Below the pieces are notes generated by a model. That model searched no databases. It was not told the DNA's origin and worked only from the letters and a program-made list of their open reading frames with translations. This document shows positions 53,821-61,595 of a DNA stretch of 64,000 nucleotides, piece by piece. A program made the translations under genes and the position numbers. This DNA is from a virus. Positions within the stretch are counted from its first letter, which is position 1, and every line of letters begins with the position of its first letter. Where the stretch lies: positions 1 to 64,000 of IMG/VR virus record IMGVR_UViG_3300034095_001503, one strand, 5' to 3'.

Positions 53821-54810
53821 ATGAGCAACGATGGTACAAGTAGTTGGTTCTTGGGTCCTTATCCAAGTAAACAAGACAATTTTAGATATTTAAAATATGG
53901 TGTTGTTGATTCTATAGAAGATGAATTTGGAATGGGTAGAATCAAAGTTAGGGTTAATGGTAACCACGCTGTTGGTGGTGACGGTGATACATTAACTAAA
54001 GATTTACCATGGGCGTTTCCATTGTTACCTAAACATTTATCAACTATACCAAAAGTTGGTGAAGTTGTGTGGATTTTTATTTTAGGTAAAAAATCACAAC
54101 ATGCTGATAGACTTTATATTGGACCAATTACGTCTCAATTAGATAAACTTAATGAAGATAGATTTTCTGCGTTAACACCTTTAAGACCATTTACATTTGG
54201 TCAATTAACTCCAGGTGCCTCAGTATTGACTGATGAGACAACAAACAAAATAATACCAGAATTAATAGGTGTCTTCCCAAAAGCAGATGAAATATCAATA
54301 CAAGGTAGATACAATACTGATATCACTCAAAAAAAGAATGAAATTGTAATTAGAGCTGGTAAATTTGAAGCTTCAGAAAGTAATGTTTATAAAATAGCAT
54401 TCAACAGTAAAACACAAGGGTTTATTCAAATTAAAAATGATGTTTCATATCCATCAACAAATAATTCTGAAAGTATTGAAAAAGGAAGTGTTACTAATAT
54501 CGTTGCTAATAAAATAAATTTATTAACACATAGAGATGGTACACCAACAATCAATATAAATAATAATGATTTAATCAGCAATGATGAATTAAAAATGATT
54601 TTAATGGATGCTCATCAATTACCATTTGGTGATATCTTATTAGAATATTTACGTTTATTGAAAGAAGCTATATTTTCACACGTACATAATGGTAACGGAA
54701 ACCCAGCAACTGATTTAACGGCAACTGACTGTGCAGCAGTAGCAGCACTTAAATCACAAGCAGATGATTTAGAAAAAAGAATGTTATCTAAAAACATTCG
54801 TATTAATTAA
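53821..54810 (+). CDS. Baseplate hub/spike protein (gp5/Vgr N-terminal OB-fold)
   Basis: GVV.SIED...GRIKVRV...LPWAFP...PKVGEVVWI...YIG; C-terminal HVH metal-binding tip motif. Confidence 0.75.
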   Translation: MSNDGTSSWFLGPYPSKQDNFRYLKYGVVDSIEDEFGMGRIKVRVNGNHAVGGDGDTLTKDLPWAFPLLPKHLSTIPKVGEVVWIFILGKKSQHADRLYIGPITSQLDKLNEDRFSALTPLRPFTFGQLTPGASVLTDETTNKIIPELIGVFPKADEISIQGRYNTDITQKKNEIVIRAGKFEASESNVYKIAFNSKTQGFIQIKNDVSYPSTNNSESIEKGSVTNIVANKINLLTHRDGTPTININNNDLISNDELKMILMDAHQLPFGDILLEYLRLLKEAIFSHVHNGNGNPATDLTATDCAAVAALKSQADDLEKRMLSKNIRIN

Positions 54811-56249: not shown

Positions 56250-56600
56250 ATGAAAAGTTTTATAAAAAAAAGAATTAGAGAAGAAATGATTGATGGTCAG
56301 AACATGTCACCAATTATGCAAACATTTTGTAATCAAATGAGTATACCAAAAGAATGGTTTAATGCTGATTATGAACGTATAATTGAATTAGTGAGTAGTA
56401 TGATTGGACCTAAAGATGGTAAAAATGCTGCAATTTGGGAAAAGATTCATTTACCATTAAAACAATGGAAACAACAAGAAACTAGTATCAACAAACAAGT
56501 TAAACAAGGAAAAATGTCTGGTAGTTCAAATCCAGACAATAATACTTATTGGACAGAAATCCAAACAACAATTTGTGAACAAGGTTCAGATTTTGAATAA
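56250..56600 (+). CDS. Hypothetical, putative head-internal protein
   Basis: N-terminal MKSFIKKRIREE propeptide-like segment. Confidence 0.5.
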   Translation: MKSFIKKRIREEMIDGQNMSPIMQTFCNQMSIPKEWFNADYERIIELVSSMIGPKDGKNAAIWEKIHLPLKQWKQQETSINKQVKQGKMSGSSNPDNNTYWTEIQTTICEQGSDFE

Positions 56601-56606
56601 AAAGAC

Positions 56607-56638
56607 TTGACAATTTTTTTTATTGTCATATATTTATA
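56607..56638 (+). promoter_or_regulatory. Overlapping promoters with an operator-like palindrome
   Basis: TTGACA at 56607, TGACAAT-N7-ATTGTCA (56608-56628), TATATTTA (56629-36) and late ATATTTATA (56630-38). Confidence 0.55.
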
Positions 56639-56640
56639 AA

Positions 56641-56712
56641 TGTGTTAACTCACGTATTGGTCTCGACCCTTAAAATGGTTTAGAGTTGTCAAGGCAACAA
56701 AGATATCAGTAC
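56641..56712 (+). ncRNA. Candidate structured 5' leader (three-way junction)
   Basis: GTATTGGT(56654-61) pairs with ATCAGTAC(56705-12), enclosing hairpins CTCGACC-N8-GGTTTAGAG and GTTGT-CAAG-GCAAC; folded by eye only. Confidence 0.4.
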
Positions 56713-56742
56713 AATAATAACAAAAATTAAAAGTTAATTAAA

Positions 56743-57642
56743 ATGTACAAAAAAAACTATGAGGCACCAACTGTGCCTACAGCTATGATTGCTGTGAACA
56801 AATCAAGACTTAAAGTCTACAACAATACGGGCGATATGCCAACGTATTATCTACAATCTGGAACTGAGTTCCAAATCGAATTATTCAACCCAACAACGGA
56901 CGTTATTTTGGCTAAAATCATACTTAACGGTAATCCTATTTCACAAGGTGGTTTGGTATTGAACCCTGGCCAGAGAGTTTTCTTGGATAGATACTTAGAT
57001 GTTGCTAAAAAATTCTTATTCGATACCTATGAAGTATCTAACACTGAAGAAGTTAAAAAAGCCATCGAAAAGAATGGTGATTTCAAAGTAGAATTCTACA
57101 GAGAAAGAATCGAACCTAAATTCAACCCAAATTACGGTAGTCTAACAATAAATAGCTGTAATTCTAGAGGTTTTAGTGGAAACTTAAACAACACAATTGG
57201 TGGTTACGCTTCAAATAACGGTAATGCTGTTAATCTTTCAAACACATCTGGTCATCTTGGGACTACTGCATTATATAGTTCTCCTATATCCAATACTTTC
57301 TTTGACCAAAACGCTAACAGAAGTATTCCAACACTAGATTCAATGGAAGATACTTTATCGTTGGATATACCAAATGTAACTAGAAGGTTTTCACAAAAGA
57401 AGCTTTCTAAGAGCATAGAAACTGGTAGAGTAGAGCAAGGTTCAGTTTCTGACCAAAAGGTTGTTACAGTGGATAAAAAGTTTGAATATTGGGCTTTCCA
57501 TACAATTGAATGCAAGATGCTACCAGTATCACAAAAAATAAATACAGTTGAAGATATACATGTAAAAGTATATTGCACCAACTGTGGTTCTAAATTAAGT
57601 AAAGGTCACAAATTCTGTGGTCACTGCGGAACAAAAGCATAA
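56743..57642 (+). CDS. Conserved phage hypothetical protein with C-terminal zinc ribbon
   Basis: Beta-rich N-domain (EFQIELFN...GQRVFLDRY...KFLF...NGDFKVEFYRE), low-complexity linker, ETGRVEQGS, CTNCG...CGHCG. Confidence 0.75.
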   Translation: MYKKNYEAPTVPTAMIAVNKSRLKVYNNTGDMPTYYLQSGTEFQIELFNPTTDVILAKIILNGNPISQGGLVLNPGQRVFLDRYLDVAKKFLFDTYEVSNTEEVKKAIEKNGDFKVEFYRERIEPKFNPNYGSLTINSCNSRGFSGNLNNTIGGYASNNGNAVNLSNTSGHLGTTALYSSPISNTFFDQNANRSIPTLDSMEDTLSLDIPNVTRRFSQKKLSKSIETGRVEQGSVSDQKVVTVDKKFEYWAFHTIECKMLPVSQKINTVEDIHVKVYCTNCGSKLSKGHKFCGHCGTKA

Positions 57643-57670
57643 AATAAAATTAACGAGTTAACACACAATA

Positions 57671-57701
57671 AAAAAGCCTAGAATGTTCTAGGCTTTTTTT
57701 T
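57671..57701. terminator. Bidirectional intrinsic terminator
   Basis: AAAAAGCCTAGAA-TG-TTCTAGGCTTTTTTT. Confidence 0.85.
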
Positions 57702-58362
57702 ATTTTATTAATATTGGCATTTTATTCTTTATAAATATTTTATTCAAATCTGTTATCGTTGTTTTTGTTATTACACAATCTTTTTTACCATCTGCGTTAA
57801 CACCTAACCAAACATAGGTTATTTTATTAATAACCAATATTTTATAATAATGTGTTGGTATTTTTATTGTTGAATTAGGTAAGTATTTTTTATTCTTTTC
57901 ATCGTAGATAACACCAGTAATTATAATAGCATCTTTTTTATATTTGGCTATTGAATCCTCAACACCCATCTCTAATTCTTTCCATGGATGTTCGTTAAAA
58001 TAAGCATATTGTGGTGCTTCATTTAACATACTAAATGAATAACGATTTATTAAACTATCATACGATGTAATGCTAGATGGTGTTAAATGTCCCATATCAA
58101 AACCAGTTTTAGAAAATCTACTTTGGATATATTTTCCTTTATAAGCTTCTTGGAACCAACAATTACATCTATCATATGTACCTTTATTTTTAAAGTTTTT
58201 ATATGTTATAACATGTTTAGAAGCTAATGTTGTTGTATCATTATCTAAATATAAAGTTATATCACCATGAGGTATTGTTAGTGTATTATTTATTATTACA
58301 TTTGTTTGGGAATAAGTTCCAAAAGTAATTAGTAGTGTTAGTAAAATTAAAATATGTTTCAT
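57700..58362 (-). CDS. DNA/RNA non-specific endonuclease (NucA-like) with signal peptide
   Basis: GFDMGHL.P, SMLNEAPQ...FN...W..LE, ITG, IPTHYYK; hydrophobic N-terminus MKHILILLTLLITFGTYSQ. Confidence 0.85.
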   Translation of the reverse strand: MKHILILLTLLITFGTYSQTNVIINNTLTIPHGDITLYLDNDTTTLASKHVITYKNFKNKGTYDRCNCWFQEAYKGKYIQSRFSKTGFDMGHLTPSSITSYDSLINRYSFSMLNEAPQYAYFNEHPWKELEMGVEDSIAKYKKDAIIITGVIYDEKNKKYLPNSTIKIPTHYYKILVINKITYVWLGVNADGKKDCVITKTTITDLNKIFIKNKMPILIK

Positions 58363-58375
58363 ATAGATAAATATC

Positions 58376-58405
58376 TTGATTAATAAAAAATAATTCGTAT
58401 ATTTG
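58376..58405 (+). promoter_or_regulatory. Bacteroidota-type promoter
   Basis: TTG(58376-78)-N19-TATATTTG(58398-405). Confidence 0.7.
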
Positions 58406-58426
58406 TATAAATTAAAACTTATAACT

Positions 58427-58582
58427 ATGTGTATTAAAAAATTAGTAAGCCAAACTTATTTAGATATTAAAAAATTGGTTGAAGAAACACCTAATGATAT
58501 GGATTTAGGTAAGGTGATTAGAAACTATATCGCAAAAGAAAAAGAAAAAATAGAAAAAGATGATGATTATGAAAACGTATAA
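58427..58582 (+). CDS. Small hypothetical protein (51 aa, not in the ORF track)
   Basis: MCIKKLVSQTYLDIKKLVEETPNDMDLGKVIRNYIAKEKEKIEKDDDYENV, directly after a promoter. Confidence 0.6.
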   Translation: MCIKKLVSQTYLDIKKLVEETPNDMDLGKVIRNYIAKEKEKIEKDDDYENV

Positions 58583-59735: not shown

Positions 59736-61595
59736 TTATCTTAATTCGTTAACATTAAATGTTGGTACACCATCAACTCTTACGTGACCGTAGAATCTAT
59801 TGTTAACCACTTTTTTAGCGTAACGTGTCATAATACCTTTAACTGGAGCAAAGTTAAATGGATTGTACATAGTTGGAGTTAATTGTAAAGGCACGTATGG
59901 TGCGTAGATATAACCAGTATCCAATAATGATTTTCCTTTGTGACCGATGATTACTGAGAATGCTGGTGCATAAGGGTCACGGTACACTTGGTAACGTCCA
60001 CTTAAAGAACCGATTCTTTCAATACCCATGTTGTATTGGTCTTGCTCTGGGTTAGCATCAGATACGTGGAAGTATTCTAAATCGTCAAAGATTGCAGAGA
60101 TTTCAGAAGAAACCACGATGAAGTTTGCACCACCACGAAGTGTTGATTTATGGATTTGAGCAGAAACTTGGTTTAATCTAGTGATTAAAGTTTGATTCCA
60201 TTCTTTTTGAGTATATGGGTTTGCAGATGTAGCAGCTTTTCTCCATCCGTTATAATCCCAACGTAATTGCCATGCAGCAGCTTTACGGATATCTCTAAGG
60301 ATTTCACGGTCAATCTCAGCAGCAACTTGTTCAGATAACATAGCAGTTAATTCAGCTTCAGCATCAATGTTGTGGAATGCACTAACATCTTGTGCTAACT
60401 CTGGAGACCATGTAGCTCTTAATTTTCTTTCTTCTACAGATACAACAACTTCGTCTAATCTGAAAGATACTTCTCCCATTTCAGTTTCAAGCTCTAATGA
60501 AGCGTATTCAGCCCATGCAGCAGTGAAAGTGAAAGCAGATACAGTTGTTGCAGATGCACCAACATATCCATCATAAGTAGCAGTACCAGGAGTGATATTT
60601 GTACCAGCAGCAGTTGTTCCAACTGGGTGACGTAAATCTAACTCTACATAACAAGTACCAGTACCATCAGTTAATGAACTAGAACCAGTTACGATACCTT
60701 TACCATATTGTTGAGTAACTAAACGGAAAGGAACTTCTTTACCAGCCTCGATGATTTGGTTACCGTCTCTATCTAAGATAGCAGCACTAGTTACAACGTG
60801 TAATGAAGCTAAGAAAGATTCAGTATCCATGTTGTTACCGTTAGCACCAGTCATTACTTCTCTACCGTTGTTTGTAACGTTTTTAGAGAAACCAGTGATT
60901 CCTAAGATAATACCTCTTAATGAACCATCAGTTGCAGTTGCACCTGGAGACATAGCAGCAGTAGCTACAGTATAAGAACCGTCAGTTCCTAAAGTGTAAA
61001 CAGCAGAACCACCAACTTGGATAGTAAGAGTACCTTTAGAGTTGTCAAATAAACCGTCATTGTAGAAAGCATCATAAAGATTTTTTCCTACGAATGGAGT
61101 TACAACACAACCACCAGCACTAATACAAGAAGGCAATGCAGCTCCAACTGGAGTACCATTGTTAAGACCACCTAAACCAGTGTGTGCAGAAAATTGAGTA
61201 TTATAAGCACCACCATTTACGTCATAATCAGAACCAGCATTTCCAGCACCGTCAACACGACTAGAAGTTTGTGGAACGAAGAAGAACAATTTACCAATTG
61301 GCATGTTCATAGCTTGTACAGATACGATATCGTTAGCTAATAATTTAGAGAAAACTCTACGTACAATTGGGAAAACTACAGTTTCGAAAGAACCAGAGTT
61401 AGTTGCAGTTGTAGCTTCAGTTAATAATGAAGACGCTTGGTTTTCATATAATTGAGCGATGTTTTCTTTTACGTGTCCTCTAAGACCGTCAAGGAATCCT
61501 AAAGAATCCCATTTTGTTTGTGTTTCCAAACGAATAGCTTTCATGTGGTTTAAACCGATGTTACCTACTTGTCCAGATGTTAATAAATGTGACAT
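59736..61595 (-). CDS. Major capsid protein (T4 gp23-like)
   Basis: FPIVRRVF...SVQAMNMPIG, RKLRATWSPELAQD..AFH.IDAEAELT..LS..VAAEIDREI, YAPYVPL, GIMTRY. Confidence 0.95.
   Translation of the reverse strand: MSHLLTSGQVGNIGLNHMKAIRLETQTKWDSLGFLDGLRGHVKENIAQLYENQASSLLTEATTATNSGSFETVVFPIVRRVFSKLLANDIVSVQAMNMPIGKLFFFVPQTSSRVDGAGNAGSDYDVNGGAYNTQFSAHTGLGGLNNGTPVGAALPSCISAGGCVVTPFVGKNLYDAFYNDGLFDNSKGTLTIQVGGSAVYTLGTDGSYTVATAAMSPGATATDGSLRGIILGITGFSKNVTNNGREVMTGANGNNMDTESFLASLHVVTSAAILDRDGNQIIEAGKEVPFRLVTQQYGKGIVTGSSSLTDGTGTCYVELDLRHPVGTTAAGTNITPGTATYDGYVGASATTVSAFTFTAAWAEYASLELETEMGEVSFRLDEVVVSVEERKLRATWSPELAQDVSAFHNIDAEAELTAMLSEQVAAEIDREILRDIRKAAAWQLRWDYNGWRKAATSANPYTQKEWNQTLITRLNQVSAQIHKSTLRGGANFIVVSSEISAIFDDLEYFHVSDANPEQDQYNMGIERIGSLSGRYQVYRDPYAPAFSVIIGHKGKSLLDTGYIYAPYVPLQLTPTMYNPFNFAPVKGIMTRYAKKVVNNRFYGHVRVDGVPTFNVNELR

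Follow-up and report, generated by a model that had tools for sequence, protein, structure and literature searches.

Complementary transcript ends and a three-way-junction leader in a gene family of very large phages

Stem-loops located at or near the 5' end of a message, as in the ompA leader, ermC and others, block decay that depends on the 5' end. Pairing between flanks also decides the fate of RNA in the stems flanking rRNAs, in the RNase III sites of phage T7 and in lambda sib, where the helices span at least 20 bp and are cleaved. RNase III-type enzymes usually require near-perfect duplex spanning some two turns (~20 bp or more), and their trimming activity is known from rRNA precursors and phage T7 mRNAs. 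In Staphylococcus aureus, the 3' UTR of the icaR mRNA reportedly represses translation, masks the ribosome binding site and favours cleavage by RNase III. Base-pairing joins this 3' UTR to the 5' UTR of the same mRNA (PMC3868564). In the hbs mRNA of Bacillus subtilis, a 14-bp pairing joins the 5' UTR to a segment located just upstream of the terminator, and limits cleavage by RNase (Braun, Durand and Condon 2017, PMC5737220).

A single-gene unit between baseplate and head genes

The stretch of DNA analysed here (64,000 nucleotides, hereafter the window) belongs to the genome of a very large, uncultured phage from lake water. In protein searches, matches were restricted to the Lak phages of Prevotella and to further huge, uncultured phages; a search of phage DNA returned zero nucleotide matches. 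The unit under study separates plus-strand baseplate genes from minus-strand head genes; the features of the region are as follows.

53821-54810, plus strand: 329-aa protein, match to a baseplate hub family
56607-56634, plus strand: promoter-like site TTGACA-16-TATATT (11 of 12 matches), predicted start at ~56640-56642
56608-56628, plus strand: palindrome TGACAAT-N7-ATTGTCA, in the spacer between the -35 and -10 boxes
56641-56651, plus strand: 5' arm of the long-range helix, TGTGTTAACTC, predicted first transcript bases
56654-56712, plus strand: leader three-way junction, from covariation and a covariance model
56654-56664 with 56702-56712, plus strand: leader helix P1, two bases past the 5' arm
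56666-56668 with 56677-56679, plus strand: leader helix P2
56685-56688 with 56695-56698, plus strand: leader helix P3
56713-56742, plus strand: A-rich, unstructured 30 nt before the AUG, ribosome loading region without a Shine-Dalgarno sequence
56743-57642, plus strand: open reading frame, gene of the 299-aa protein
57655-57665, plus strand: 3' arm of the long-range helix, GAGTTAACACA, reverse complement of the 5' arm
57670-57699, two-way: intrinsic terminator, 13 pairs followed by a T-run
57700-58362, minus strand: DNA/RNA non-specific endonuclease gene, convergent, using the same two-way terminator
59736-61595, among the head genes of the minus strand: 619-aa protein, match to a major head protein

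The locus was compared with homologous loci from deposited huge-phage genomes (n = 11) and from IMG/VR (n = 69), designated by L numbers, with protein identities of 31-88%; flanks were readable in 75 loci.

An earlier note on the window had listed the palindrome, the two 11-mers, an open reading frame with a zinc ribbon, a promoter and a terminator, all of which were found at the positions that it gave. The 11-mers are, as it had also said, exact reverse complements, and TGTGTTAACTC and GAGTTAACACA are the sole two exact copies in the window. The extension of this pairing by CGT/ACG, which it had added, is invalid: G57655 would be re-used, being already paired with C56651, G56654 and T56655 are bases of P1, and the extension is not kept in relatives. 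The 3' arm lies 13 nt past the stop codon and 4 nt ahead of the terminator stem, and positions 56713-56742 are covered by neither the three-way junction nor the long-range helix.

With regard to expression signals, the box TATATTTA in the promoter-like site is also compatible with the Bacteroidota-type TAnnTTTG motif, and a TATATTTAT box stands immediately 5' of the 5' arm in nearly all relatives. Elsewhere in the window, the promoter at 58376-58430, located before a small ORF upstream of an HNH gene, exhibits the exact Bacteroidota consensus (TTG, then TAtaTTTG), which supports a putative Bacteroidota host for this phage. A spacer palindrome of varying sequence was also observed at the same place in L012, L016, L019, L021, L038, and L060, with its left arm often taking in the -35 box. 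When read by eye, the hairpin or palindrome was formed by GACAAATT/AATTTGTC in L012, ACTATTTT/AAAATAGT in L060, and AAAAACTATT/AATAGTTTTT in L019, and was missing from L013, L017, and L041. This structure could be a weak terminator of the upstream gene, or an operator.

The earlier note had seen no such terminal pairing at other genes and, indeed, none was found at any other gene of the window. When the 5' zone was tested against the 3' zone by shuffling, the gene gave a z-score of 4.0 (p ~0.007); with ~65 genes in the window, ~0.5 such matches are expected by chance. Moreover, the window contains 15 intergenic inverted repeats of at least 11 nt within 6 kb, all but two of which are at least 91% A+T. 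Taken by itself, and in the window only, the 11-bp match is weak evidence and not compelling; it is the comparison with relatives, not the window alone, that argues for more than chance.

Pairing of the transcript ends among relatives

Homologues were checked for flanking complementarity and leader structure. A helix joining the same two places was present in 62 of the 75 loci, with shuffle z-scores of 3 to 9, and the leader stems were found to covary. The 5' arm was located at -94 to -111 from the ATG. The 3' arm was located 5-17 nt past the stop codon in 55 loci, usually beginning 12-14 nt past it, and 0.9-1.2 kb away in seven others; in most relatives, it adjoins the terminator. The gap from the -10-like hexamer to the first paired base was mostly 5-6 nt, which places this base at ~+1. 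Helix cores measured 10-15 bp, that of the window being 11 bp, with 38 distinct helix sequences among the 62 loci. The arms of distant clades are unrelated words (ACGTGATTAAACTA, AGACCTTGTG, TTTATAGCTGTTCG, and TCTCACTTTGTT), of which the first three were seen to pair no less well. Chance complementarity in an A+T-rich genome would be in keeping with the figures from the window alone, that is, such a p-value for one of ~65 genes and many A+T-only inverted repeats of equal length. It is refuted by the recurrence of the pairing, with compensatory changes, at two fixed places in 62 loci, and its probability is negligible.

In a plain MAFFT alignment of whole transcripts, 79.7% of the cells at 13 named pairs were able to pair, versus 24-40% with the partner slid, and the observed long-range covariation was reached by 0 of 500 shuffles; this alignment mis-registers distant clades, so that the signal is understated. 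The two pairs beside the GTTAAC core were found in the complementary states GT:AC, AC:GT, GC:GC, TG:CA, and TA:TA. On the protein tree, at least 10 changes of these pairs were counted, some of them among phages closely related to that of the window, and complementarity was retained throughout.

Positions of the core that are not Watson-Crick pairs were sense-strand G:U in six lineages (L026, L044, L056, L063, L068, and L061), the exceptions in helix cores being one A:A and one C:U. A:C was restricted to frayed ends and to the decayed helix of L059, which retains only 7 bp. Since random transitions in DNA repeats would give G:U and A:C equally, this argues for pairing at the level of RNA rather than DNA. 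The G:U bias, the free change of the arms and the fixed order of promoter, arm, gene, arm and terminator together point to pairing in the sense RNA. In minimum-energy folds of whole predicted mRNAs, every long-range pair was present in five out of five transcripts with different arms. The 5'-3' panhandle proposed in the earlier note is thus backed by covariation in 62 loci, by sense-strand wobbles and by whole-transcript folds. Overall, these comparisons indicate that an end-pairing RNA fold very probably exists and is under selection.

We also considered that the arms might act at the DNA level, as inverted repeats of a mobile cassette, as crossover sites of an invertible segment, or as two operators of one protein. 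The unit is self-contained, and L090 lacks both it and the adjacent endonuclease gene at the corresponding site; the region is a hotspot of homing endonuclease genes, and a GTTAAC palindrome is present inside each arm. However, the arms enclose neither the promoter nor the terminator: in every locus read, the 5' arm is preceded by a promoter and the gene is followed by a terminator or by an inserted endonuclease gene, and the inverted order was found in none. Neither a recombinase nor a transposase is encoded, the sole gene between the arms being that of the β-sandwich/zinc-ribbon protein, and the neighbours of the unit are endonucleases, not invertases. The flanks (TATAAA and CAATAA) exhibit no target duplication. 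Some of the 38 arm versions are free of the palindrome, whereas a protein site would be conserved rather than covarying, and the mismatches are of the sense-strand G:U type instead of being evenly mixed with A:C. Moreover, repeats of 11-15 bp, the length of the arms, are too short for homologous exchange. A role in DNA, including the mobile or invertible cassette suggested in the earlier note, is therefore very improbable.

An empty site was found among related phages. In this close relative of the window (L090, 5745-6000, versus 56598-58430 in the window), both the zinc-ribbon unit and the neighbouring non-specific endonuclease gene are absent, and directly past the upstream 112-aa gene come a terminator and the promoter that serves the small ORF ahead of the HNH gene. 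The gene was not found elsewhere in the records of L090, L108, L137, and L155, which are 8-32% complete.

Other loci carry insertions between the stop codon and the 3' arm, a site that is a hotspot for mobile endonucleases: a LAGLIDADG endonuclease gene in L029 (2365-3245), whose 3' flank is shared by L036 and L049, a GIY-YIG gene in L040 (2418-3570), and further inserts in L055 and L061. These inserts push the 3' arm 0.9-1.2 kb from the stop codon. The arm matches the 5' arm of its own locus in five of these six loci; that of L061 is degraded, with wobbles and one mismatch. A terminator-like hairpin follows the stop codon in L029, which suggests that the message may stop short of its arm and that pairing would then be dispensable, at least temporarily. 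A GIY-YIG gene fused to approximately the first 19 codons of the zinc-ribbon gene stands behind the canonical promoter, 5' arm and leader in L035; a second, degenerate leader (52 bits) lies ahead of the displaced zinc-ribbon gene, and an 11-bp helix encloses both genes. In both L035 (520-1480) and L065 (340-1490), the GIY-YIG gene has usurped the promoter, 5' arm, leader and start codon.

The long-range helix was not found in L001, L003, L009, L065, and five Lak phage loci. In L001, which has no long-range arm, a TTGAAA-16-TATAAT promoter makes +1 coincide with the start of P1 (11 bp), and in L009 a local hairpin is present immediately past the -10 box; these local 5' structures fit the same need for burial of the 5' end. 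For the Lak loci, candidate arms consisted of A+T-only matches and were rejected as unconvincing. The leader model gave no match there at E-values up to 1, and the junction that can be drawn by eye is not evidence. The homologues in Lak phages L002, L004, L005, L010, and L011 are open only when TAG is read as a residue; this in-frame TAG fits the known recoding of stop codons in late genes of Lak phages.

In the distant homologue L006 (2885-2905 and 3816-3845), the 12-bp arm of the long-range helix shares about five bases with the 5' strand of P1 and, as a result, the long-range helix and P1 would compete. For a second, non-nested arm pair in the same locus (TGTTAAGG/CCTTAACA), which was taken as chance, part of the sequence probably precedes the start.

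The three-way-junction leader and the encoded protein

The leader was examined in an alignment of 56 distinct sequences, and its structure was refined from the fold of this alignment. Pairing was possible in 95.3% of cells, versus 32-50% when the partner was slid, and none of the leader measures was matched by any of 500 shuffles. Both sides had changed in 15 of the 18 pairs, and these compensatory changes bear out the three-way junction that the earlier note had drawn. The joining strands (GA, UUUAGA, and AAA) were nearly invariant, and the loops were variable.

A covariance model of the leader identified one site only, at 56646-56745 (108 bits), both in the window and in the 78-kb record. 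This model also matched 11 further loci, 10 with the gene called and one (L104) clipped by the end of its contig, and gave zero matches in loci without the gene. None of the Rfam 15 covariance models matched within 56640-56745 at E-values up to 5; the sole Rfam matches were terminator look-alikes (57639-57726), far under the gathering scores. The element was described in no paper or RNA family found by literature search and Rfam scan, and the three-way-junction leader constitutes an RNA motif not previously described. The junction is most likely a protein-binding module or a further protective one.

The 299-aa protein was modelled by AlphaFold with 52 homologues. It is predicted to consist of an Ig-like β-sandwich (aa 7-125, completed by strands from aa 225-261), a disordered linker (aa 132-221) and a C-terminal zinc ribbon (aa 277-298). 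The latter matches PF13240 at residues 277-298 with 28.9 bits, versus a cut-off of 25, and contains a CxxC...CxxC knuckle pair. The protein was without a family in PHROGs, and fold searches returned just generic Ig-like sandwiches and uncharacterised viral proteins, from which no function can be deduced; the generic folds were MSP/PapD-like, with Z 6.5 and an rmsd of 3.1-3.4 across 94-103 residues. Conservation within the protein is highest in the motif IETGRVExGSxSxQ (57415-57456, residues 225-238), located past the disordered linker, in which E226, T227, G228, V230, G233, S236, and Q238 are invariant. The I-E and V-E within this motif resemble prohead-protease sites.

The C-terminal domain appears to be exchangeable: L007 and L008 carry a SHOCT domain instead of the zinc ribbon, and the linker of L009 contains collagen-like repeats. 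Arms and leader are kept in L007 and L008, which weakens the suggestion, made in the earlier note, of autoregulation through the zinc ribbon. The location in a structural module, the exchangeable small C-terminal domain and collagen-like linker of relatives, and the in-frame TAG in Lak phages, suggest that the product is a late virion protein.

Proposed function and comparison with known systems

The gene would form an insulated single-gene transcription unit, with an mRNA beginning at ~56641. The first 11 nt of this mRNA would pair with 57655-57665 in the 3' UTR and close the whole message into a loop. In finished transcripts, the helix would bury the 5'-triphosphate end in duplex beside the 3' hairpin, so that pyrophosphohydrolase, 5'-end-dependent endonuclease and 5'-exonuclease, which need a single-stranded 5' end, could not begin decay; 3' exonucleases would likewise be barred from starting it. 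Protection would be reserved for full-length messages, which would be stable and translatable late in infection, with a high output of the probable virion protein as a result. The A-rich 30 nt before the AUG would be left free, so that initiation would not be blocked by the fold, and the 3' strand, located just past the reach of a terminating ribosome, could allow the fold to persist during translation.

We infer a protective fold because the helix lies at ~+1 and two bases before P1, its 3' strand is near the terminator, and the loading region is free. Judged from this geometry, burial of the 5' end may well be what protects complete transcripts from decay, a role that we put forward tentatively. 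The best explanation overall, a selected end-pairing fold in a single-gene message with a protective function, seems on balance probable. The 11-bp helix that closes the 1-kb loop is only moderately stable. The only data from RNA libraries are contigs of relatives: two metatranscriptome runs yielded short contigs in which neither a start nor an end of the transcript is visible, one contig extending 47 nt upstream of the promoter, and no joints were found in DNA runs. Covalent circularisation, another possibility raised in the earlier note, loses ground here, as the 5' end abuts an internal base rather than the 3'-OH.

A stronger version would make the closed loop a licence, in which end pairing and the junction together ensure that only transcripts reaching the terminator are kept and translated, the junction being the dock of a protein, from the phage or its host, by which this state is sensed; we consider it rather unlikely.

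A different role would be the control of translation by completeness: the nascent 5' arm would pair with a short look-alike of the 3' arm, AGUUAAU, at -11, near the ribosome loading site, and keep translation off until the longer 3' arm is made and takes its place, which would restrict translation to finished messages. In the window, L019, L056, and L076, the 5' arm could form 6-7 bp with positions -12 to -6 (p 0.02-0.07 versus shuffles), and the sequence AAGUUAA ahead of the AUG is conserved in the main clade. However, this pairing is weak (z-scores of 1 to 2.8) and is absent in L007, L008, L050, and L052; the GTTAAC core is a palindrome, so that the look-alike pairs trivially, and independent clades are too few for a test. 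Such a switch is improbable.

The stacking of the end helix on the terminator hairpin could also create an RNase III-type site, at which both ends would be trimmed. In L007 and L076, the long-range helix is flush with the terminator stem, with no spacer and ~27 stacked pairs, a geometry reminiscent of the stems flanking 16S and 23S rRNA. In the window, however, the stack is broken by the 4-nt spacer, the helices of 10-15 bp fall under the ~20 bp usual for these enzymes, and neither a conserved internal loop nor a cleavage motif was seen; we regard a processing stem as even less probable than the switch.

A separate observation concerns L068, L070, L071, L073, and L074, which exhibited no clear hairpin terminator in the first 40 nt after the 3' arm. 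In this clade (L068-L074), a U-rich run (UUUUUAAUAA, UAUUUAAUAA or similar) directly follows a long-range helix of 14-15 bp, and the next promoter comes soon after. Since a hairpin terminator is lacking and the U-rich run follows the 3' arm, the helix itself may aid the end of transcription.

Compared with the rRNA-flanking, T7 and lambda sib stems, the phage helix is shorter (10-15 bp), and no cleavage signal was seen. It resembles the ompA and ermC stabilisers in being located near the 5' end, and L001 and L009 seem to use local versions of such structures. However, ompA and ermC rely on local hairpins, whereas the partner strand in the phage is 1 kb away in the 3' UTR, so that a complete transcript is required. 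As in icaR, the 3' UTR of a bacterial-type mRNA would pair with its own 5' UTR (PMC3868564). Unlike in icaR, the phage helix is ~90 nt away from the AUG, on its 5' side, and the loading region remains free.

The closest parallel is hbs, in which complementary segments of the 5' and 3' UTRs also belong to one transcript and the 3' segment is also located just before the terminator (PMC5737220). The evidence is of the same kind, pairing being backed by compensatory changes, which in the phage case are those of natural covariation only. The 5' segment of hbs is internal, past two hairpins and over an RNase Y site, whereas the phage arm corresponds to the predicted first bases of the message, before the junction. 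While hbs is a single experimental case, the phage pairing is that of a gene family with natural covariation, known from sequence alone. End pairing in bacterial-type mRNAs is so far known from a handful of single-gene experiments, and that described here is kept, through dozens of compensatory changes that arose independently, across a family of very large phages, which points clearly to selection. It may provide a part for stabilising messages in Bacteroidota-type hosts and, with its many natural variants, it lends itself to studies of how end pairing affects mRNA stability and translation where the cell has neither caps nor poly(A)-binding proteins.
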